From: a marine bacterium B5-7
GTDB lineage: Bacteria; Pseudomonadota; Gammaproteobacteria; Arenicellales; CAJQKF01
NCBI GenBank assembly: GCA_021604525.1
Contig: BQJD01000003.1
Span: 12,242 to 76,241 of the forward strand
DNA: 64,000 nucleotides
Direction: 5' to 3'
Under the pieces are notes generated by a model. It searched no databases and was not told where the DNA came from. It saw only the letters and a list, made by a program, of their open reading frames with translations. A program made the position numbers and the translations under genes. Of this stretch, positions 19,789-29,742 are shown piece by piece. Position 1 is the first letter of the stretch. Each line of letters starts with the position of its first letter.

Positions 19789-20604
19789 ATGACAAATACA
19801 CCAGGGCCTTACTCGCCATCTGCTTCAACACTACCGTGTATAACGAGTCGCCTGCTTGAGTCAGGTCGGGTTGCGCATGGTTTTTTTACACGTGAGGGCG
19901 GAAAATCAGACGGATTGTATGCATCGCTTAATGCATCATACGGATCTAATGATGATGCCACTTTGGTGTCTGACAATCGGACTCGTGTAGCTACCAGATT
20001 CAAGATCGATGCAACGCAGCTATATACATTGAAACAGGTACATGGAACCGATGTCGTTCATGCTGACCTTAAGACACCTGCAAGAACGACTCCAGGAGAT
20101 GCACTGGTCTGTGCAACTCCCGGTATATTGATTGGAATACTGGCGGCCGACTGTGTTCCACTTTTGCTGGTAGATCAAGACGCGGGGGTCGTTGGCGCAG
20201 CACATGCGGGGTGGCGCGGCGCGGCGACGGGGGTAGTGGAAGCGGTGGTTACCGCAATGGAGGAACGAGGTGCTATTCGCTCGAGAATTCGTGCCGCGAT
20301 CGGGCCGGCTATCTCATCGTCCTCGTACGAAGTTGGCGAGGACCTGATTACCGAGGTCAATAAACTGGTTTCTTTCGATTGCAGCTTTCTGATAAATCGA
20401 CAGGATAGTAAAACATGGTTTGATTTGCCCGGACTGGTGCGCTCGCAGTGTCTTCAATCAGACATTACCCTCATCGATCAACTGGCACATGATACCTATG
20501 CCGATGAAGAGAGGTTTTTCAGCTATCGACGGGCCGTTCATCGCGCAGAACCTGACTATGGGCGACAATTGTCTGTCATAGGATTGCGATTGCCATCCAT
20601 TTGA
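19789..20604 (+). CDS. pgeF: PgeF/YfiH multi-copper-oxidoreductase-like (purine nucleoside phosphorylase) protein
   Basis: HGFFTR, QVHG, AADCVP, HAGWRG, FFSYRR. Confidence 0.92.
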   Translation: MTNTPGPYSPSASTLPCITSRLLESGRVAHGFFTREGGKSDGLYASLNASYGSNDDATLVSDNRTRVATRFKIDATQLYTLKQVHGTDVVHADLKTPARTTPGDALVCATPGILIGILAADCVPLLLVDQDAGVVGAAHAGWRGAATGVVEAVVTAMEERGAIRSRIRAAIGPAISSSSYEVGEDLITEVNKLVSFDCSFLINRQDSKTWFDLPGLVRSQCLQSDITLIDQLAHDTYADEERFFSYRRAVHRAEPDYGRQLSVIGLRLPSI

Positions 20605-20677: not shown

Positions 20678-21559
20678 TCATGGATTACCCGCACGGGTCA
20701 GTAATTCACGCAGAACATTCAGATATCGCGCCTTCGGGTTTTTAGATGGAGCGACCAACCCAACGACACGATAGGTTGGTAGCCGACCGAAGGGAAAGGT
20801 ACGCACGCTTGAAGGAAAAGGTTTTGCGATATTTCTTCTGGGAACCACAGCCACGCCAAGTCCCTTTGAGACCATGCGTGATATGGCTTCCAGTGAATTC
20901 ATTTCCATGCTCGATTTAACCCGGATGCCTTCGGCAAGAATCTGATTTTCAATCAGTCTCCCGGCATATGCATCGCGGTGAAATCGAATAAACGGATGAT
21001 GACCCAGTATCTCGCGGTAACCCGTTTCACGAACCTCGCGGTGAGCGATGACGACGAGTGGTTCGTTAAAACATGGCATCCAGTTGAGTCCGCGATCGAT
21101 GGAATCCGGCATCGATACAATTGCTGCATCCAGTTCACTGTCGCGAACCCGACGGGTTAATTCGACAGATAAATCGCTGAATAACTCTACCTGAAGTTCC
21201 GGAAGGGCTTGTGCCAGTTTCGAGAGGACATCGGGGAGGACACCGGATGTAACCGTCGCAACCGAGCCCAATTTGAATTGTGTCTCTTGAGAAGCACTGA
21301 TCGCTTGAGAATTCGTACTTTCTCGAATCTCGTCACACAGTGCCAATACTTCCCGGGATTTTTCCACAACCGATCGACCGGTAGCGTTCAATACTTGGGG
21401 GCGACAGCTTCTATCGAATAACGGCACGCCGAATTCGCGTTCCAGTTGACGGATCTGAAGACTGACGGCTGACTGGGTTAATCCGATTTTCTGACCGGCT
21501 GCGGCGAATGTGCCGCTATCAGCTATGGATACCAGCGTTCGAAGATTTCTAAGCTCCAT
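20678..21559 (-). CDS. LysR-family transcriptional regulator
   Basis: MELRNLRTLVSIADSGTFAAAG..LTQSAVSLQIRQLE..G.PLFDR HTH; divergent from the CoA-transferase gene. Confidence 0.95.
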   Translation of the reverse strand: MELRNLRTLVSIADSGTFAAAGQKIGLTQSAVSLQIRQLEREFGVPLFDRSCRPQVLNATGRSVVEKSREVLALCDEIRESTNSQAISASQETQFKLGSVATVTSGVLPDVLSKLAQALPELQVELFSDLSVELTRRVRDSELDAAIVSMPDSIDRGLNWMPCFNEPLVVIAHREVRETGYREILGHHPFIRFHRDAYAGRLIENQILAEGIRVKSSMEMNSLEAISRMVSKGLGVAVVPRRNIAKPFPSSVRTFPFGRLPTYRVVGLVAPSKNPKARYLNVLRELLTRAGNP

Positions 21560-21606
21560 TTTTTAAAGGCCGACCAAAGTTTTGAATCAGGCTTAGTAGT
21601 ATAAGA

Positions 21607-21621
21607 ATTAATCGTTCTAAT
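21607..21621. promoter_or_regulatory. candidate LysR recognition site
   Basis: ATTA-N7-TAAT (T-N11-A dyad) in the AT-rich divergent spacer, ~50 bp upstream of lysR. Confidence 0.45.
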
Positions 21622-21741
21622 TGTTAAAAATATTCGTTTGATTAATGTTAACGGAGTTCCTAGACTGTTCTCATTCACACATTCGTGACAGATTTGCGCT
21701 TTGTGTTGCATTAATTCTCATCTCAACCAGTCACCGAAAAC

Positions 21742-23004
21742 ATGATATCTACAACAGCTAAAGGTCCTTTAGAAGGAATCCGCATTCTCGATTTATCTCG
21801 CATCCTGGCTGGGCCAACCTGCACGCAGGTTCTCGGCGACATGGGTGCGGACGTTATCAAGATAGAAAAGGCGGGTGCCGGTGACGATACGCGCAAATGG
21901 GGCCCGCCTTTCGTCAAGGATGCCAACGGGAACGATACCACCGAGAGTGCGTATTACCTCTGCGCCAACCGTAACAAACGTTCCGTGGAAATCGATATTT
22001 CACTCACAGAAGGTCAGGAACTGATTCGCAAACTGGCTGGCGAATGCGATGTATTTATTGAAAACTTCAAGGTGGGTGGGCTTCGCAAATATGGCCTGTC
22101 CCATGATGATCTCAAGGAATCCCGGCCATCTCTCATTTATTGTTCGATCAGTGGATTTGGGCAGGATGGGCCTTATGCCGCACATCCGGGATACGATTTC
22201 ATGATCCAGGCAATGGGTGGGATCATGAGTATTACCGGGCAACCCGATGGCGATCCGACCAAAGTCGGCGTGGGTATTGCCGATGTAATGTGTGGAATGT
22301 ATGCAGCGGTATCAATCCTTGCTGCACTGCATCATCGCGACAAAACCGGTCAGGGACAGTACATCGATCTGGCGCTTCTGGACTGCCAGGCGTCCTGGCT
22401 AATCAATTCCGGACTGAATTACCTGACTTCCGGCAAGACGCCGACGCGCATGGGCAATAGTCACCCCAATATCGTTCCCTATGAAGTATTCCCGGCAAGT
22501 GATGGATATTTCGCGCTCGCAGTGGGTAACGATACGCAGTTTGCCCGGTTCTGTGATGTTGCAGGTGCCCCCGAACTCGCTGTCGATCCGCATTATGTGA
22601 CCAACTCTCTGCGTGTTGAACACCGTGAAGAACTTGTACCGAAATTACGGCGTATTACGGTCGAGCGGCACGTTGACGATTGGCTGAATGCACTGCAACT
22701 TGCCAAAGTGCCGTGTGGCCCGGTCAACGATATCAGACAGGTATTCGAGGACCCGCAGATCAAGCATCGCAACATGCAAATCAGTATGGCGCACCCGCTG
22801 TCTGGCAGTGGATCAGTTGATTTGATCGGTAGTCCCATTCGTTTCGGGAAAACTCCGGTCACATATCGCCATGCACCGCCGGTCATGGGTCAACATACGG
22901 ACGAGGTTCTTGAAGAGCTATTGAATCTTGATGCGAACGTTCGAAAGTCGTTGCGTGCACGCGGTGTAACCGGTAAACAATCACCAGGCGATGGGGATCA
23001 ATAA
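21742..23004 (+). CDS. class III (CaiB/BaiF) CoA-transferase, likely 3-sulfinopropionate-activating by context
   Basis: ILDLSRILAGP, GADVIKIE, GDDTRKWGPP, NRNKRS, ENFKVG, GYDFMIQAMGG, catalytic Asp in GIADVMCG. Confidence 0.9.
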   Translation: MISTTAKGPLEGIRILDLSRILAGPTCTQVLGDMGADVIKIEKAGAGDDTRKWGPPFVKDANGNDTTESAYYLCANRNKRSVEIDISLTEGQELIRKLAGECDVFIENFKVGGLRKYGLSHDDLKESRPSLIYCSISGFGQDGPYAAHPGYDFMIQAMGGIMSITGQPDGDPTKVGVGIADVMCGMYAAVSILAALHHRDKTGQGQYIDLALLDCQASWLINSGLNYLTSGKTPTRMGNSHPNIVPYEVFPASDGYFALAVGNDTQFARFCDVAGAPELAVDPHYVTNSLRVEHREELVPKLRRITVERHVDDWLNALQLAKVPCGPVNDIRQVFEDPQIKHRNMQISMAHPLSGSGSVDLIGSPIRFGKTPVTYRHAPPVMGQHTDEVLEELLNLDANVRKSLRARGVTGKQSPGDGDQ

Positions 23005-23005
23005 G

Positions 23006-24208
23006 ATGTTCTCGTTACCCCAGGAGCAACTTGAACTACAACAACGCGCACGCGATCTGGCAGTACGGGTTATCGCCCCTCGCGCGGCCGATATCGATAT
23101 CTCTCAGGAATATCCATGGGATAACGTCAAGGCGTTGACCGATGCCGGTTTCATGGGGATGACCATTGCCGAGAACCATGGCGGACCGGGTCTGTCCTTT
23201 CTTGATGCCGTGGTCGTGATCGAAGAAATGGCCAGGGTATGTGCTGTCACGGCGCGAATTGTCGTTGAAGGCAACATGGGCGCTATCAGCGCAATCATGA
23301 AGTATGGTAGCGATAAGCAAAAACGCATGGCTGCCGAACGCGTTCTGACGGGGGATAAGCCGGCTATATGTATCACTGAACCGGAAGCGGGAAGCGCCGC
23401 TTCGCATATGACAACACGGGCAGATAAAAAAGGCGATCGCTATGTGTTGAATGGTTTTAAACACTGGATTACCGGCGGCGGAGTATCTGATCTTCACCTG
23501 GTTTTTGCGCGCGTATTTGATGACGGTAAGGAACTTGGTATCGGCGGGTTTATAGCGTTTCGTGAAGAGGATAAAGGACTGATAGTCGGTCGTCGCGAGC
23601 CTACCATGGGGTTACGAGGCATTCCCGAGACCGAGATTATTATCGAAAATCTCGAACTTTCCAGCGATCGCTTGATCCAACCGCCTGAAGGTCTTGCGCG
23701 TGGATTTGCCGGGTTAATGAATGCATATAATGCCCAACGCGTTGGTGCCGCTACCGCAGCCATAGGTATCGCACAAGGCGCCTATGAAAAGGCGCTTGAG
23801 TACAGTCAATTGCGCAATCAGTTTGGCAGACCAATCAGTGAATTTCAGGGTTTGCAATGGATGATGGTCGATATGAGCATTCAGCTGGCTGCGGCACGTG
23901 GTTTAATTTATCAGGCAGCATCTAGTGGCTCGAAATTCCCTGATGCCACACTGGCAGCACAGGCAAAAATTCTTGCCTCTGAATCGGCAATCAAGATAAC
24001 CAACGATGCGTTGCAGATATTCGGCGCAGCCGGTTATTCAAGGAACCTGCCCATGGAACGAATGGTGCGCGATGCGCGTATGTTTACTATTGGTGGTGGC
24101 ACTGTGCAAATTTTACGTACCATGGTCGCAGGACAATTACTGGGCCGGAAACTACCGCAAACAAGAGACGGCTATGTTGACCCGGTCAAAGTAGAAACGG
24201 CAATATGA
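23006..24208 (+). CDS. acdA: 3-sulfinopropionyl-CoA desulfinase-like acyl-CoA dehydrogenase-fold protein (alternative start 22991)
   Basis: closely recalls Advenella/Variovorax Acd: YPWDNV..L.DAGFMGM, GDKPAICI.EP.AGSAAS, WITGGGVS.LHL.FARVFDDG, AYNAQRVGA, RDARMFTI.GGT.QILRT, KLPQTRDGY; Arg (TARI), Cys (AICI) and Gln (NAQR) at the desulfinase active-site positions as recalled. Confidence 0.82.
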   Translation: MFSLPQEQLELQQRARDLAVRVIAPRAADIDISQEYPWDNVKALTDAGFMGMTIAENHGGPGLSFLDAVVVIEEMARVCAVTARIVVEGNMGAISAIMKYGSDKQKRMAAERVLTGDKPAICITEPEAGSAASHMTTRADKKGDRYVLNGFKHWITGGGVSDLHLVFARVFDDGKELGIGGFIAFREEDKGLIVGRREPTMGLRGIPETEIIIENLELSSDRLIQPPEGLARGFAGLMNAYNAQRVGAATAAIGIAQGAYEKALEYSQLRNQFGRPISEFQGLQWMMVDMSIQLAAARGLIYQAASSGSKFPDATLAAQAKILASESAIKITNDALQIFGAAGYSRNLPMERMVRDARMFTIGGGTVQILRTMVAGQLLGRKLPQTRDGYVDPVKVETAI

Positions 24209-25845
24209 TTGCTGCTGAAGTAATTGCACGACGCCTTGCTCTGGCTGGCGTTAAAGAAGCCTACGGGATACCTGGAGGCGAAGTACTGACATTCGTAAAC
24301 AGCCTTGCCGATGCCGGGATTCGGTTTGTCCTGTGCAAACATGAAAATGCCGGTGGCTTCATGGCCGAGGGTGCCTACCATGCGAGTGGTGCACCCGGTG
24401 TGCTGGTTGCAACACTCGGCCCTGGCGTTGCCAATGCGGTTAACGTTATGGCGAATGCCTTGCAGGATCGGGTGCCGATGCTGTTGATTACGGGTTGTGT
24501 CGATTCATCTGAAGCTGCGACTTACACCCATCAGGTTTTCGATCATGGTGCGTTATTGTCCTGTGTCACCAAAGCGACGATGACCATTGCTGACGGTGCA
24601 GTGGACGTCATGATCGATAAGGCACTGGCCATAGCCATGCAGGATCCTCCAGGGCCTGTACATCTTGATCTGCCGATATCGGTCGCTCACAAGGAACAAA
24701 AGGACCCTGCATATCAAATTGAAAAGGCCATGCCACTGCGTGGCACGCCGCGTGTTGGCGAGTCGCTTGAGACAGCCTCTAAATGGCTGGCCGAGGCTCG
24801 TCGGCCGATAATCATAGCCGGGCTCGAGGTGTTGTATCAGGGTGCGGAGGAAGCTGTTTCTGCGTTTGTTAAGACTAATTCCGTACCACTTATTACCACG
24901 TATAAAGCCAAGGGAATTCTCGACGAGGAACATCCTTTGAGTCTGGGTGCAGCCGGTCTGTCTCCTAAAGCTGATGATCTTCTTCTACCTCTGGTAAGCG
25001 AAAGCGACTGTATTATCCTCGCCGGCTACGATCCAATCGAAATGCGCAGTGGCTGGAAAAATCCATGGCCGGAAGATGCCCGTGTCATCGAGTTCTCAGC
25101 AGTTCCAAACGTCCATTACATGCATCATTCGCGATTTGAATTTATTGGCGATATCGGTGCTGGCCTTGAAGCATTAACGAAGTGCGTTACCGATCTGGAT
25201 ATCGTTGTCACTGATAATTCGCGGCCCAGTCCAAAGGTTGATGACGCCGTAGTATTAATACAAAAGAAACTGGCCTCATACTTTGGCGCCGGCCTTGACG
25301 ATTGGGGACCGCGCGCCGTGATAGACGTCGCCCGATCCGTACTTCCGCGAAACACCGTTGCAACGGTTGATTCAGGCGCTCATCGGATACTGCTGAGCCA
25401 GATGTGGACATGTTACACACCACGGACATTATTGCAGTCGACCGGGTTATGCACCATGGGCTGTGCCTTGCCGATGGCAACAGGCTACAAACGCCTGAAT
25501 CCACAGACACCTGTTGCGGCTTTCATGGGTGACGGCTGTCTTGAAATGGTGTTGGGTGAGCTTGCCACATTGCGGGACAGCGGTTTGCCCGTGACGGTGA
25601 TCGTGTTTGTCGACGAATCCCTCGCACTCATCGAATTGAAACAGCGCAAACTTAACTATCAAAATGTTGGTGTGGATTTTACCGGCACCGATCTTGCTGC
25701 AGTCGCTGAAGCGATGGGTGGCCGAGGTGTGACTGTCGATACTCGCGACTCGCTTGTCTCGGCCATTAATGAATCTCTTGATGCCACGACCTTCACTCTG
25801 ATCGCTTGTATCATCAGCCGCAAAGCCTACGATGGTCTGTTCTGA
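24205..25845 (+). CDS. thiamine diphosphate-dependent enzyme (acetolactate synthase-like fold), function unknown
   Basis: GIPGGEV, catalytic HE (KHENAGGFMAEG), LGPGVAN, GDG motif; ATGA overlap with acd. Confidence 0.88.
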   Translation: MIAAEVIARRLALAGVKEAYGIPGGEVLTFVNSLADAGIRFVLCKHENAGGFMAEGAYHASGAPGVLVATLGPGVANAVNVMANALQDRVPMLLITGCVDSSEAATYTHQVFDHGALLSCVTKATMTIADGAVDVMIDKALAIAMQDPPGPVHLDLPISVAHKEQKDPAYQIEKAMPLRGTPRVGESLETASKWLAEARRPIIIAGLEVLYQGAEEAVSAFVKTNSVPLITTYKAKGILDEEHPLSLGAAGLSPKADDLLLPLVSESDCIILAGYDPIEMRSGWKNPWPEDARVIEFSAVPNVHYMHHSRFEFIGDIGAGLEALTKCVTDLDIVVTDNSRPSPKVDDAVVLIQKKLASYFGAGLDDWGPRAVIDVARSVLPRNTVATVDSGAHRILLSQMWTCYTPRTLLQSTGLCTMGCALPMATGYKRLNPQTPVAAFMGDGCLEMVLGELATLRDSGLPVTVIVFVDESLALIELKQRKLNYQNVGVDFTGTDLAAVAEAMGGRGVTVDTRDSLVSAINESLDATTFTLIACIISRKAYDGLF

Positions 25846-25997: not shown

Positions 25998-27014
25998 ATG
26001 AACAGTGTTTCACCTTTTGGTCGGGCTGAGGGCAACGCCCTCTGCAACGTTGGCTTTTTTCTCATCGAATCTTTTTCGATGATGGCGTTTGTCTCGGCGC
26101 TTGAGCCTCTTCGCATCGCCAACCGTATGTCCGGGCAATCACTTTACGACTGGCAGGTTATCAGCGAAGATGGCCGACCGGTGATGCCAACCAATGGCGT
26201 CACCGAAGTGCCGGCGATGTATTCCATTGATAATGCACCGGATTTTGAAGTGTTATTTGTTTGCGGTGCATTTGATCCTCTCGACTATCGCTCCCCCCGT
26301 GTATTCAGTTGGCTGAATCACCTCGCAAGAAACAATACCTGTTTAGGCGGGGTCGATACCGGTAGCCACGTACTTGCACGAGCCGGCTTGCTGAAAGATA
26401 AACGCTGCACCATTCACTGGGAAAACATGCAGGGCTTCGTGAGTGAATTTGCAGATCTCAAGGCGTCCCACGAAATTTATGAGTACGACAGTTATCGATT
26501 GACCTGCGCCGGTGGCACTGCGGCAATGGACATGATGCTTTACTTCATTGAACAGCAGCAGGGTCTTGAACTTGCTGCATCGGTATCGGATGTTCTTATC
26601 CATCCCAATATTCGTCATGGTCACCATCCACAGCGAATGAGCGTTGAAGCACGAACCGGTGTTCGCCATGCGGGTTTATTGGAATGCATCGAGTTAATGG
26701 AGGCTAATCTTGAGCAACCATTAACACCTAGTGAGTTATCGACGATGATCAACGTATCGAAACGACAACTTGAACGACTGTTTCGGCGTTACCTTCACTC
26801 TACTCCGGCCAGATACTATCTGTCGTTGCGTCTCAATGAAGCAAAACGACTCCTTGAACAATCCTCCATGCCGATAATTGATGTCGCTATTTCCTGCGGA
26901 TTCAATTCTGCCGGCCATTTCTCTTACCGATATCGTTCCTATTTCGGAGTGAGTCCACGGACAGCGCGTTCACGTGCCACGCGAGGAACATCGGAAATTG
27001 CTGCGGCAGTTTGA
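25998..27014 (+). CDS. GlxA-family (GATase-like + AraC) regulator, GbdR/CdhR-like
   Basis: FSMMAFVSALEPLRIANR, GGVDTGS..LARAGLL, CTIHWEN, TCAGGTAAMD, RQLERLF, GFNSAGHFS. Confidence 0.93.
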   Translation: MNSVSPFGRAEGNALCNVGFFLIESFSMMAFVSALEPLRIANRMSGQSLYDWQVISEDGRPVMPTNGVTEVPAMYSIDNAPDFEVLFVCGAFDPLDYRSPRVFSWLNHLARNNTCLGGVDTGSHVLARAGLLKDKRCTIHWENMQGFVSEFADLKASHEIYEYDSYRLTCAGGTAAMDMMLYFIEQQQGLELAASVSDVLIHPNIRHGHHPQRMSVEARTGVRHAGLLECIELMEANLEQPLTPSELSTMINVSKRQLERLFRRYLHSTPARYYLSLRLNEAKRLLEQSSMPIIDVAISCGFNSAGHFSYRYRSYFGVSPRTARSRATRGTSEIAAAV

Positions 27015-27060
27015 AGGCAACGGTTTCTACCTGTCTTAGGTGATACATCGGCGCTGTTCT

Positions 27061-27087
27061 TGACGCGTATTTGCTAATTCGTGTCGC
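27061..27087 (+). promoter_or_regulatory. candidate GlxA-family regulator box A
   Basis: TGACGC-N15-TGTCGC, 21-bp period, 73 bp upstream of mttB1; 18/27 identical to 48789-48815. Confidence 0.55.
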
Positions 27088-27159
27088 CAATACGCCACGT
27101 CTTAATGGGGCAGCGGGCAAACTTTGATCTTTCAATGTACGTAATCGTGGGGTACCCGC

Positions 27160-28764
27160 ATGGGACATGAAAGTTCGAGTACTGTGAAGAAACGACCAGG
27201 TGGTCGTAGTGCCAGGCATGAATTGCGCAGTCGACAACTGCCGCAGGATGAACAGCCTGTGCGGCCGGGGTTGCCTGGCGGTGGACGCTATCACCCACTG
27301 ACCGATACAGATGTTGTCCGAATTCACAATGCCGCTCTTGATGCTTTGGAAAATATCGGCATGGCCAATTCCATTCCCTCATGCATTGACTTACTCACTG
27401 GCGCAGGCGCACGCCTTGCTGATAATGGTCGCATCCTGTTTCCCCGTTCATTGGTGGAAGATGTTATTGCCAATTCTGCGCATGAGATCACCCTGTATGC
27501 ACGAAACCCGGAACAACATGTTCATGCAGGTGATAACCGTGTGTACTTTGGTACGGCCGGCGCTGCAGTACATATGGTGGATGCGGTTAGTGGGATGTAT
27601 CGGGAATCAACACTGAAAGATTTATATGATGCGGGTCGCATCGTCGATCGCCTCGACAATATTCATTTCTTCCAACGGTGCATGGTCGCGCGTGATGTCC
27701 CGGATCCGCGAGAGATGGATCTTAACACCTGCTATGCCTCGATCAGCGCGACAAGCAAGCACGTCGGTACGTCGTTTGTCGATCCGGAACATGCTGAAGA
27801 AGCGCTCAGGATGTTGCATCTCCTGGCGGGGAGCGAAGCACAGTGGCGGGCACAACCCTTTGTCAGTTGTTCCTGCTGTTTTGTAGTACCACCGTATCGC
27901 TGGGCAGAGGACGCCTGTCGGGTACTCGAGACAGTCGTTCGTGGGGGGATGCCGATCCTGCTATTGGCTGCAGGGCAGGCAGGTGCAACCAGTCCGGCGT
28001 CATTGGCCGGGGCGGTGGTTCAGGAAGTCGCTGAAGTTTTGGCAGGACTCGTATATGTTCACGCAATCAAACCGGGTCATCCTGCAATATTCGGGACCTG
28101 GCCGTTTATATCCGACCTTAGAACGGGCGCCATGAGTGGCGGAAGCGGCGAACAGGCGGTGCTAATGGCGGCCTGTGGTCAAATGGGTCGTTTTTATAAC
28201 CTGCCGACCGGAATTGCTGCCGGCATGGCGGATTCAAAGGTGCCTGATACGCAGTCGGGATTTGAGAAAGGCTATACCGATGTACTGGCGGCTCACAGCG
28301 GGGCAAACCTGATTTATGAATCGGCTGGAATGCAGGCGAGTTTACTCGGCATGTGTCACGAATCGTTGGTTATCGATAACGACATGCTGGGAGCAATCAA
28401 TCGAACCGTGCGTGGCATTGAAGTCGATGACGAGTCGTTATCGCTTGAGAGTATGCGCAATGTCTGTCTGGAGGGGCCAGAGCATTATCTCGGGCATCCG
28501 CAAACGCTGTCATTGATGCAGAAAGATTACATCTACCCCGATGTCAGTGATCGGCTCAGCCCAAATGAATGGGCGGAGCAGGGCAGACTGACGATTGTGG
28601 ATCGTGCCCGGATACGTGTGAGTGAAATACTGGATAACCACTTTCCGGCGCATATCGACCCTGCGGTGGACCGAAAGATACGTGAGAATTTCCCGATAAA
28701 ATTGCCCGTTGAATCCATGCGACCCGCATCTGATACGATCGCCTCATCTGTCATTGAAAAATGA
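27160..28764 (+). CDS. MttB-family (non-pyrrolysine) methyltransferase, paralog 1
   Basis: RVYFGTAGAA, AGQAGATSPASLAGAVVQ, KPGHPAIFG, DLRTGA, DSKVPDTQSGFEK, GANLIYESAG; no in-frame TAG. Confidence 0.9.
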   Translation: MGHESSSTVKKRPGGRSARHELRSRQLPQDEQPVRPGLPGGGRYHPLTDTDVVRIHNAALDALENIGMANSIPSCIDLLTGAGARLADNGRILFPRSLVEDVIANSAHEITLYARNPEQHVHAGDNRVYFGTAGAAVHMVDAVSGMYRESTLKDLYDAGRIVDRLDNIHFFQRCMVARDVPDPREMDLNTCYASISATSKHVGTSFVDPEHAEEALRMLHLLAGSEAQWRAQPFVSCSCCFVVPPYRWAEDACRVLETVVRGGMPILLLAAGQAGATSPASLAGAVVQEVAEVLAGLVYVHAIKPGHPAIFGTWPFISDLRTGAMSGGSGEQAVLMAACGQMGRFYNLPTGIAAGMADSKVPDTQSGFEKGYTDVLAAHSGANLIYESAGMQASLLGMCHESLVIDNDMLGAINRTVRGIEVDDESLSLESMRNVCLEGPEHYLGHPQTLSLMQKDYIYPDVSDRLSPNEWAEQGRLTIVDRARIRVSEILDNHFPAHIDPAVDRKIRENFPIKLPVESMRPASDTIASSVIEK

Positions 28765-28785
28765 CTTGAACCTATTTAAAAATGG

Positions 28786-29742
28786 CTACTGACTCTCGTC
28801 CAGGCCGATAAATGTGCGCATGGCGGGTAACGCTGATGCGCCATCGCGCGTGGTAACTCCTTTGAGCCATGACTCGAGAATCTTCGGCTGCTGCCTCATC
28901 CAGGCAATGGCTGCAACCAATGGCTGCGCCTTGAGATCGAGGATGGCAGTCATGACTTCGTTAATCATCGGCAGGCTGAACTCAAGGTTGCCGAATAACA
29001 GGGCAAGATTCGGGCAGTTTTGTGCGAAGTTCGATCCGAGTCCGGTATAGGCATCGGCTCCACCAAACGAAGGTCCGAACACGTCATCTCCTCCGTCGAG
29101 ATAATAGATGTCGAATCGGACATTCATGGGATGTGGTTCGAAGGCCAGGAACACCATGGGTTTACCCGTCTGATTAGCTTCGGCAATTCTTTGCACAAGA
29201 TCGGCTTCGGATGATTCGACGAGTTTGAACTGCGCGAGGTGAAATTTGTTTTCGTCGATCATTTTTTGAATGAGAAAATTTCCGTCAGAACCCGGCTCGA
29301 CTCCATAAATCCTGTACGATAACGCCTCTTGCTGTTGGCTGATGTTGCTAAAGTTTTCTATGCCAAGGGTATGGCCATGACTGTTAACAGCCAGGGTGTA
29401 TTTCGTACCATGCAGATTTTGACGGACCAATTCCAGCGAGTTGTCAATAATATAAGGTCGTAGCGATGCACCCATGGTCGGTACCAGGATGTCCAGGGAT
29501 ATATCCAGATCCTGGTTTTTAATGCTTGCAAAAATGGTTGGAGGTGAAAGTACCTGGTGACTCGTCTCATAACCGAGTCCGCGTAGAAGAGCGGTTGCGA
29601 TTGCCAGTGATGCACCGGCATCCAGCCAGCCGACAGTGCCGAACCGTACCCTCTCGCAGCGATCTGTATCCTGGGCATGGACCGGCAATATCGTAATCAT
29701 CAGTACGTATGCCAGTAGTACTATCGAAGCAAATGCTTTCAT
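28786..29742 (-). CDS. quaternary amine ABC substrate-binding protein, ChoX-like
   Basis: signal peptide; VGWLD, KYTLAV, YGVEPGSDGN, EPHPMN, YLDGGDDVFGP. Confidence 0.88.
   Translation of the reverse strand: MKAFASIVLLAYVLMITILPVHAQDTDRCERVRFGTVGWLDAGASLAIATALLRGLGYETSHQVLSPPTIFASIKNQDLDISLDILVPTMGASLRPYIIDNSLELVRQNLHGTKYTLAVNSHGHTLGIENFSNISQQQEALSYRIYGVEPGSDGNFLIQKMIDENKFHLAQFKLVESSEADLVQRIAEANQTGKPMVFLAFEPHPMNVRFDIYYLDGGDDVFGPSFGGADAYTGLGSNFAQNCPNLALLFGNLEFSLPMINEVMTAILDLKAQPLVAAIAWMRQQPKILESWLKGVTTRDGASALPAMRTFIGLDESQ

Follow-up and report, generated by a model that had tools for sequence, protein, structure and literature searches.

A thiamine diphosphate enzyme coupled to act and acd in marine bacterium B5-7 as a candidate feeder module for 3-sulfinopropionate catabolism

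The marine bacterium B5-7 (Arenicellales; CAJQKF01) carries a short operon in which a class III CoA-transferase (Act) and a 3-sulfinopropionyl-CoA desulfinase (Acd), which by homology to characterised enzymes would form the established end of 3-sulfinopropionate (3SP) catabolism, are followed by an uncharacterised thiamine diphosphate (ThDP) enzyme. The operon lies in a stretch of 64,000 nt from the assembly GCA_021604525.1 (BQJD01000003.1:12,242-76,241; contig C3 of genome G000), and this whole stretch is called the window below. To our knowledge, the desulfinase has been described only in isolates obtained on the synthetic compounds 3,3'-dithiodipropionate (DTDP) and 3,3'-thiodipropionate (TDP), where 3SP is formed from 3-mercaptopropionate by the dioxygenase Mdo. 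Our evidence favours a separate feeder route into 3SP, in which the ThDP enzyme could well decarboxylate a C4 2-oxo acid, probably 2-oxo-4-sulfinobutanoate derived from homocysteine sulfinate; we hold the type of reaction with medium confidence and the substrate with lower confidence. The desulfination core is known, and what is new is an undescribed and widely distributed candidate feeder module.

The sequence bears out the gene arrangement described in our first-pass annotation, namely three coupled genes divergent from a LysR-type regulator (Table 1). The stop codon of act (TAA, 23002-23004) is separated by a single G from the ATG of acd at 23006, which leaves a 1-nt gap, and the acd stop and the ThDP start overlap in an ATGA (24205-24208). 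A second in-frame ATG of acd is present at 22991; an independent gene call on the public contig, which has the same sequence, returned the same boundaries, with the start at 23006 and an Acd of 400 aa. Near-identical contig pieces across act, acd and the ThDP gene were found in a run from another study labelled as probable RNA, and one piece of this putative RNA run covers the acd/ThDP junction (24093-24379). This hints at co-transcription of the operon, in a run whose library type was guessed and where DNA carry-over is possible. A scan of the operon for promoters and terminators gave counts close to the shuffled expectation, except for a promoter-like site of lysR that is described with the regulator below.

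Table 1. Coordinates in the window of the operon, its divergent regulator and the candidate regulator boxes.
Feature	Position	Strand	Remarks
LysR-type regulator	20678-21559	-	PF00126 HTH_1 + PF03466 LysR_substrate; divergent from operon
Dyad ATTA-N7-TAAT (T-N11-A type), ATTAATCGTTCTAAT, candidate LysR site	21607-21621	.	within 182-bp divergent spacer
Second T-N11-A box, ATTCGTTTGATTAAT, carrying an ATTCG(C/T)TT core	21632-21646	.	core recurs in orthologous spacers
Act, class III CoA-transferase	21742-23004	+	PF02515, 442 bits
Acd, predicted 3-sulfinopropionyl-CoA desulfinase, acyl-CoA dehydrogenase fold	23006-24208	+	NF042439, 646.1 bits
ThDP enzyme, uncharacterised ALS/IlvX-like subfamily	24205-25845	+	three TPP_enzyme domains

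Acd is predicted from its sequence to be a genuine 3-sulfinopropionyl-CoA desulfinase, and the earlier match of this protein to the known enzyme, including its Arg, Cys and Gln positions, stood up to closer comparison. Its score against the 3-sulfinopropanoyl-CoA desulfinase equivalog NF042439 exceeded the cut-off of 600 bits, the next family being acryloyl-CoA reductase with 300 bits, and it matched the structures of AcdDPN7 (5AF7/5AHS) at 61% identity with 520 bits, the next acyl-CoA dehydrogenase (ACAD) reaching 254 bits. Arg84 and Cys122 are retained in the alignment to 5AF7, the Gln of an AYNAQR motif (window residue 244) corresponds to Gln246 of AcdDPN7, and the FTIGGGT stretch contains no Glu at the position of the catalytic base of the medium-chain ACAD. 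Because of this Gln and the missing Glu, the protein has no dehydrogenase base and resembles the characterised desulfinase in this. Maximum-likelihood analysis placed it in a clade with AcdDPN7 (support 100/98, stem of 2.37 changes per site) and not among ordinary ACADs, and seven ACAD paralogues of the same genome were placed outside this clade.

Act is a full-length PF02515 protein, so that a class III CoA-transferase fold is encoded 1 nt upstream of acd, in the position of MIM_c31380 in Advenella. Its best PDB matches are 4ED9 and the SUGCT structure 9BR6; its best NCBIfam match, succinate--glutarate CoA-transferase, reached 504 bits against a cut-off of 750, and Act is therefore not a member of that equivalog. 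For comparison we used 80 genome loci in which Acd shares 66-79% identity with that of the window, and Act orthologues of 57-78% identity adjoin acd in 13 of them. Homology, scores and tree agree in supporting the view that Act and Acd are a pair for 3SP activation and desulfination.

The third gene encodes a ThDP enzyme of the three-domain superfamily of pyruvate oxidase and acetolactate synthase (ALS), with matches to PF02776, PF00205 and PF02775, a catalytic Glu47 in an HEN motif (residues 46-48) and a metal motif composed of GDG at residue 442, X25 and DE. It remained below every NCBIfam cut-off, the best being PRK08322 (336 of the 509 bits required). Three assignments to known enzymes were tried and rejected on the scores. 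A true ALS is not indicated, since all ALS equivalog cut-offs were missed by wide margins (AlsS, 275 of 510; TIGR00118, 258 of 538), with a catabolic ALS as the best PDB match at 186 bits. An Xsc-like desulfonating role is likewise disfavoured (TIGR03457, 167 of 676; PRK07525, 178 of 620), and so is an analogy to frc-oxc, where a class III CoA-transferase is combined with a ThDP enzyme acting on CoA esters (NF058623 HACL, 168 of 600; HACL/OXC chains in the PDB, 102-118 bits). Xsc and ComDE do show that ThDP enzymes act on C2/C3 sulfonated carbonyl compounds in organosulfonate metabolism; the Xsc models differ from the window protein by the wide margins just given (167-178 bits, cut-offs 620-676), and ComDE belongs to another subfamily and is split into two subunits. 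ComDE with ComC has also been proposed to handle 4-mercapto-2-oxobutyrate in M. jannaschii.

A functional parallel lies with NF005712, the model for 5-guanidino-2-oxopentanoate decarboxylase, whose name indicates that ALS-like proteins can be 2-oxo acid decarboxylases. It shares the ALS-like three-domain ThDP fold, and we take it to be the AruI subfamily, in which the enzyme stands between a transaminase and an aldehyde dehydrogenase in the transaminase pathway; the cassettes described below likewise have an aminotransferase before and an aldehyde dehydrogenase after the ThDP step. The window enzyme and its Acidovorax orthologue differ from this family in that they scored 224 and 258 bits against a cut-off of 500, so that neither is a member, and in that the proposed substrate is an anionic sulfur 2-oxo acid. 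As many as 5372 database proteins match the ThDP enzyme at E <= 1e-30, the named relatives being called only 'acetolactate synthase' or 'thiamine pyrophosphate-binding protein', and our literature searches found no paper assigning a function to this clade.

The linkage of the ThDP gene to acd recurs well beyond the window, as the first-pass annotation had suggested should be surveyed. Among the 67 informative loci, which have at least 1.8 kb of sequence downstream of acd, a ThDP orthologue of 50-65% identity directly follows acd in 31, and in five more loci the start of the gene is visible before the contig end cuts it. An all-against-all clustering of the open reading frames (ORFs) of the 80 loci merged unrelated families through shadow ORFs in high-GC contigs; it was used only to choose representatives and was replaced by targeted tblastn and by Pfam and NCBIfam scans. 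The gammaproteobacterial carriers include Arenicellales-like, Poriferihabitaceae, Acidiferrobacterales and Ectothiorhodospiraceae, the many alphaproteobacterial ones include Thalassobaculaceae, Sneathiellales, Rhodobacteraceae and Hyphomicrobiales, and protein look-up added SAR324, Burkholderiales and an actinomycete. Three carriers can be cultured, namely Acidovorax sp. NCPPB 4044, Thalassobaculum litoreum DSM 18839 and Oceanibacterium hippocampi CECT 7691.

The association is also seen where the two genes are apart. Among 400 genomes sampled evenly from the class, with few candidates scored per genome, a ThDP orthologue was found in 5 genomes and Acd in 7, and all 5 ThDP genomes, two of them from one family, had Acd (Fisher exact p = 2.5e-10). 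In three of these five (G132, G304 and G262), ThDP and Acd lie on separate contigs. Conversely, among the 44 Acd genomes with no adjacent ThDP gene, the ThDP gene was found elsewhere in 2 and was absent from 42. ThDP thus implies Acd and the converse does not hold, and because these 42 have none elsewhere, this is the pattern expected of an optional, substrate-specific feeder module on a common core.

The genes around the pair point to a position of the ThDP enzyme upstream of 3SP, since four unrelated kinds of enzyme that form 2-oxo acids occur beside it in different lineages. An AspC-like aminotransferase immediately precedes the ThDP gene or act in Comamonas, Acidovorax, Burkholderia diffusa and Saccharopolyspora; a sarcosine-oxidase-like flavoprotein is found near ThDP/Acd in SAR324; a D-2-hydroxyacid dehydrogenase is nearby in Thalassobaculaceae, where a gamma-glutamyltransferase and a TauE sulfite exporter accompany it; and an enzyme resembling CuyA or D-cysteine desulfhydrase is nearby in G262 and G304. 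The most telling arrangement was that of Acidovorax sp. NCPPB 4044, a nine-gene operon of overlapping or abutting genes divergent from a LysR, in the order aminotransferase (AT), Act, Acd, ThDP, TctC, TctC, M20, aldehyde dehydrogenase (ALDH) and YeiH. Its Acd scored 670 bits against the cut-off of 600 and is sister to the characterised AcdDPN7 in the tree, its ALDH passes the succinate-semialdehyde dehydrogenase (SSADH) model TIGR01780 (658.8, cut-off 646.35), its ArgE-like M20 protein passes an acetylornithine deacetylase subfamily (452.8, cut-off 412), and the YeiH-family protein is a putative sulfate exporter. The TauE and YeiH exporters fit a release of sulfite. TAXI-TRAP, DctPQM and TctC, the transporters encoded next to the pair, are of types that serve dicarboxylates or acidic amino acids.

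The module also appears to be mobile. In Burkholderia diffusa (L121) a LysR and an AT-Act-Acd-ThDP core lie between transposase genes, and in Comamonas (L085) an AT-ThDP pair lies between copies of the insertion sequence (IS) IS21. The same observation takes in L120 (Saccharopolyspora), P0137 and P0159, and Streptomyces, Saccharopolyspora and Kibdelosporangium have ThDP orthologues with 71-77% identity to the Comamonas protein, which points to the cassette having passed horizontally between Burkholderiales and actinomycetes.

On this basis, a route can be proposed in which homocysteine sulfinate, or a conjugate of it, would be transaminated to 2-oxo-4-sulfinobutanoate, which the ThDP enzyme, as a non-oxidative 2-oxo acid decarboxylase, would convert to 3-sulfinopropanal and CO2. 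A dehydrogenase of the succinate-semialdehyde type would oxidise the aldehyde to 3SP, Act would move CoA, probably from succinyl-CoA, onto 3SP, and Acd would free sulfite from the resulting 3SP-CoA to give propionyl-CoA, while the sulfite would be either exported or oxidised. Conjugates may be what the cell imports, as the presence of the deacylase and the gamma-glutamyltransferase suggests. Such a route would be a sulfinate copy of the sequence from glutamate through 2-oxoglutarate, succinate semialdehyde and succinate to succinyl-CoA. The sulfinate analogue of glutamate is proposed as the starting compound because the nearest curated matches of the cassette enzymes are the steps from glutamate to succinyl-CoA and Acd acts on the sulfinate analogue of succinyl-CoA; of the aminotransferase, SSADH and CoA-transferase matches in the cassette, only that of SSADH lies above its cut-off. 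The ThDP enzyme has no match to a model of 2-oxoglutarate decarboxylase, and we infer the decarboxylation step that fills this place. In B5-7 the aminotransferase and the aldehyde dehydrogenase would come from outside the operon, candidates being an AspC-like protein (C27:27405-28607, 46-48% identical to the cassette aminotransferases) and an SSADH-like protein (C20:12287-13753, 53% identical to the Acidovorax ALDH) that adjoins a glutaryl-CoA dehydrogenase; both look like general enzymes. The operon of B5-7 probably serves two entries, including the one through Mdo.

Chemistry from C4 to C3 has a precedent at the thiol level, because in Methanocaldococcus jannaschii 2-hydroxy-4-mercaptobutyrate is oxidised to 4-mercapto-2-oxobutyrate, a precursor of 3-mercaptopropionate (Allen and White 2016, cited in PMC5695019). 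The citing paper attributes the 4-mercapto-2-oxobutyrate chemistry to ComC only (PMC5695019). The gene order of the window has its nearest known counterpart in the DTDP/3SP cluster of Advenella mimigardefordensis DPN7, composed of LysR (MIM_c31370), a class III transferase (MIM_c31380), Acd (MIM_c31390), Mdo (MIM_c31400), an AhpD-like protein and TctC (PMC5373536). The order LysR, class III CoA-transferase, Acd is the same, and the window Acd shares with its Advenella counterpart 61% of its residues and the active-site positions. The two differ in that the ThDP gene occupies the mdo slot in the window, the Mdo of this genome being on another contig with a four-rhodanese protein, and in that no AhpD-like, TctC or methylcitrate genes follow the window operon.

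An ALS-like ThDP gene near acd is not entirely unseen before, though it was never explained. The TDP cluster of Variovorax paradoxus TBEA6 contains acdA (VPARA_05440), act (05450), ilvX (05550), a semialdehyde dehydrogenase gene (05570) and mdo (05600), and in the proteome on 3SP, IlvX and the semialdehyde dehydrogenase were 6.8-fold and 6.7-fold up, respectively (PMC6370202). As in the cassettes, an ALS-like ThDP gene and a semialdehyde dehydrogenase gene therefore stand in an acd/act neighbourhood and are both induced on 3SP, a likeness in which IlvX is compared by its description; in contrast to the window, ilvX lies about ten genes from acdA, among enoyl-CoA hydratases. ilvX was also induced on TDP, its deletion left growth on TDP unchanged, and the authors credited the abundance of the protein to genetic vicinity (PMC6370202). 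No match named Variovorax was among the best 120 in a homologue search seeded with the Comamonas ThDP protein.

The first-pass annotation had noted that no thiol dioxygenase occurs in the window. This is right, the PF05995 matches of the genome being confined to contigs C6 and C28, and it holds for the window only, since C28 encodes a good Mdo orthologue (C28:10197-10784, 195 aa) with 233 bits to 4QMA, 219 bits to the Azotobacter 3-mercaptopropionate dioxygenase 6XB9 and 211 bits to its Pseudomonas counterpart 4TLF. In that region (L113, C28:3122-12421) the gene after mdo encodes a protein of 543 aa with four rhodanese domains, and genes for a LysR, an M20 peptidase and a TAXI-TRAP transporter come before it; C28 is a second organosulfur locus, unlinked to the operon. 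An Mdo encoded together with acd, as in the classical pathway, was not found in the window, and none of the 80 loci has one at a distance of up to 8 kb from acd. A close Mdo, defined by at least 40% identity, occurred in 0 of the 36 other ThDP-bearing Acd genomes and in 6 of the 44 ThDP-less ones (p = 0.03), and in 0 of the 4 other genomes of the class sample that have both ThDP and Acd; what some of the ThDP-bearing genomes have are only homologues of the cysteine dioxygenase (CDO) family with 25-37% identity. Altogether, 74 of the 80 close Acd carriers have no canonical Mdo and 6 have one. We propose that the ThDP module supplies the source of 3SP for about half of the Mdo-less carriers, and B5-7 is the exception among ThDP carriers in having a close Mdo. 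The earlier suggestion of a different organosulfur precursor is upheld in part: synteny, co-occurrence, the aminotransferase/SSADH cassettes and the absence of Mdo elsewhere speak for it, and it is limited by the Mdo on C28, by a substrate of the ThDP enzyme that is predicted and by the IlvX already noticed in Variovorax.

The Mdo orthologue of this genome gives some weight to two explanations that retain the classical step. The operon might serve only 3-mercaptopropionate and 3SP, through the Mdo on C28, Act and Acd, with the ThDP enzyme peripheral and making no C3 sulfinate skeleton; that enzyme might instead handle carbon derived from propionyl-CoA or from pyruvate/2-oxobutyrate, deal with an aldehyde by-product or act as a carboligase. 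Such an accessory role, which we consider unlikely, would agree with the induction of Variovorax ilvX on 3SP and TDP and its dispensability for growth on TDP (PMC6370202), with the occurrence beside ThDP in G132, G262 and G304 of PrpB-like and CuyA-like genes, which lead to 2-oxo acids such as pyruvate, and with ALSs being the closest curated models of the enzyme. If the enzyme were a downstream helper, it should accompany Acd as a rule, yet the ThDP gene is missing from about half of the Acd genomes; moreover, mobile cassettes carry it along with an aminotransferase and SSADH, the ALS cut-offs are widely missed and no ALS small subunit is encoded nearby. The other explanation, to which we give a low probability, is a feeder at the level of the thiol, where homocysteine would be transaminated and the ThDP enzyme would decarboxylate 4-mercapto-2-oxobutanoate to 3-mercaptopropanal, which would give 3-mercaptopropionate and, through Mdo, 3SP for Act and Acd; the operon would then complete the breakdown of homocysteine or methionine by way of the classical Mdo step. 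The logic of aminotransferase, ThDP enzyme and aldehyde dehydrogenase applies equally here, and the archaeal role of 4-mercapto-2-oxobutyrate as a precursor of 3-mercaptopropionate (cited in PMC5695019) is a precedent; the lack of a close Mdo in all the other ThDP-bearing Acd genomes and in the class sample argues against it, as do the Acidovorax and Burkholderia cassettes, which contain no dioxygenase.

Two further explanations appear to us very improbable. The same gene logic would suit homocysteate or a related C4 sulfonate, converted through 2-oxo-4-sulfobutanoate and 3-sulfopropanal to 3-sulfopropanoate, with Acd desulfonating 3-sulfopropionyl-CoA, and both the sulfate/sulfite exporters nearby and the TauD-family genes that adjoin acd in 8 of the 80 loci and occur in SAR324 could be read in this way. 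Nevertheless, Acd passes the cut-off of the sulfinate-enzyme equivalog and keeps its active-site residues, the Acidovorax Acd is sister to the characterised sulfinate enzyme, and we know of no desulfonation by an enzyme of the ACAD fold. Equally slight is the chance that the ThDP gene has no functional link and is a neighbour kept by descent, which would be in line with the many loci from related marine metagenome-assembled genomes (MAGs) and with a window operon that has no other feeder enzymes; the adjacency recurs across several phyla and classes and on IS-flanked cassettes, the co-occurrence holds with the genes on different contigs, and the genes of the window are translationally coupled.

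The decarboxylation of a C4 2-oxo acid by the ThDP enzyme has to be set against several points that weigh against it. The strong Mdo orthologue on C28 would make the classical entry from 3-mercaptopropionate available in this genome, where the ThDP enzyme need not be required. The window operon contains no aminotransferase, aldehyde dehydrogenase, transporter or exporter, so that the route needs unlinked genes. About half of the close Acd homologues are not accompanied by the ThDP enzyme, and many of the 80 loci are from related MAGs and thus do not count as independent events. An enzyme of the ALS-like kind can be a carboligase and not a plain decarboxylase, and the oxidation state of the sulfur in the ThDP substrate is not constrained by our results. 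In our literature searches no report was found of homocysteine sulfinate as a bacterial growth substrate or environmental metabolite, nor any paper on bacterial catabolism of homocysteine sulfinate or sulfinobutanoate. The unchanged growth of the Variovorax ilvX mutant on TDP counts on the same side, with IlvX compared by description only, and this result also fits a feeder enzyme that is dispensable when 3SP is made from TDP via Mdo.

A bolder form of the feeder proposal, which we put forward only tentatively, is that the whole ThDP clade is a dedicated 2-oxo-4-sulfinobutanoate decarboxylase and, with the aminotransferase, the SSADH-type dehydrogenase, Act and Acd, constitutes a complete undescribed pathway for homocysteine sulfinate or its N-acyl or gamma-glutamyl conjugates. 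The pathway would then be spread in marine alpha- and gammaproteobacteria and SAR324 and be carried on IS-flanked cassettes in soil Burkholderiales and actinomycetes. If so, C4 sulfinates would be an unrecognised environmental organosulfur currency, and most Acd-bearing bacteria would get 3SP otherwise than from 3-mercaptopropionate. A correct feeder assignment would add a sulfite-releasing pathway to marine and soil sulfur cycling and correct a widespread misannotation, and the cassettes with aminotransferase, SSADH, deacylase and exporter offer a concrete hypothesis for a new catabolic route of sulfur amino acids and for what a large orphan ThDP clade does.

We propose that the LysR protein controls the three-gene operon. 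It has the HTH_1 and LysR_substrate domains, the divergent orientation and the T-N11-A box in the spacer that are typical of LysR-type systems, and it reaches no NCBIfam equivalog cut-off; LysR orthologues of 38-46% identity are divergently placed upstream of acd or act in many related loci. The ATTA-N7-TAAT dyad of the first-pass annotation was located in the spacer, and ATTAATCGTTCTAAT is the sole match to this pattern in the window. With a chance expectation of 0.66 per window and at least one match in 49 of 100 shuffled sequences, it is statistically unremarkable taken alone, and plausible from its position; it overlaps the promoter-like site for lysR (minus strand, 21627-21598). The second box, also given as ATTCGTTT(GATTAAT), lies 11 nt beyond the dyad. 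Of 15 orthologous LysR-acd/act spacers, from Thalassobaculaceae, a Rhodobacteraceae MAG and others, 13 share its ATTCG[CT]TT core at a constant distance from lysR, and the second box is the better candidate for a conserved operator.

Some of the genes flanking the operon recur near its homologues. In several gammaproteobacterial genomes pgeF, of the Cu-oxidase_4 family (window 19789-20604), stands next to the Act-Acd(-ThDP) block on its upstream side, and in G304 it adjoins the ThDP gene alone (loci L002, L003, L013 and L104), which suggests a shared ancestral insertion site with later rearrangement. Directly downstream of the operon (25998-29742) are genes for a GbdR-like AraC regulator, a pyrrolysine-free methyltransferase of the MttB family and an OpuAC binding protein. 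The Arenicellales MAG L001, whose genome also has the best Mdo (68% identity), carries an MttB orthologue (67%; L001:1053-2591) some 4 kb upstream of Act-Acd, and an AraC homologue (50%) lies about 5 kb from acd in four loci of the Thalassobaculaceae group (L011, 2278-3183; L014, L015 and L019). It is conceivable that these downstream genes are linked to the demethylation of compounds of the dimethylsulfoniopropionate type towards 3-mercaptopropionate.

Elsewhere in G000, a module on contig C4 (57546-60453) encodes a nitrilase-family protein resembling deaminated glutathione amidase, a PrpB-like lyase and a pyridoxal phosphate (PLP) enzyme resembling CuyA or D-cysteine desulfhydrase, and parts of it stand beside the ThDP orthologue in G262, G304 and G132, where acd is on another contig (L102:8372-12573; L104:7753-8928; L106:2310-3203). 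The TauD-family Fe/2-oxoglutarate dioxygenase genes adjoining acd are those of L012, L031, L043, L046, L048, L050, L077 and L078, that of SAR324 is at L087:6990-7820, and they could represent a further entry or a side reaction. An AhpD/CMD-like 'peroxidase-related' gene near acd-ThDP (L114:5509-6111; L115:10654-11202) recalls the AhpD-core gene after mdo in Advenella. In genome G152, a 251-aa ORF between acd and the ThDP gene (L109:10341-11096), perhaps what is left of a gene, has matches solely to the C-terminal domain of PLP-dependent Orn/DAP/Arg decarboxylases. Another recurrent neighbour of acd, with or without ThDP, encodes a protein of about 440-460 aa with faint tetratricopeptide repeat (TPR) matches only and no NCBIfam match (L114:10919-12304; L116:12859-14193; L119:5214-6530; 14 of the 80 loci). 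Lastly, an MsrB-like gene, recognised by eye from CxxC and RYCINS motifs, is found one or two genes downstream of acd/ThDP in about 13 alphaproteobacterial loci (e.g. L046:10229-10753), which may be plain conserved synteny.

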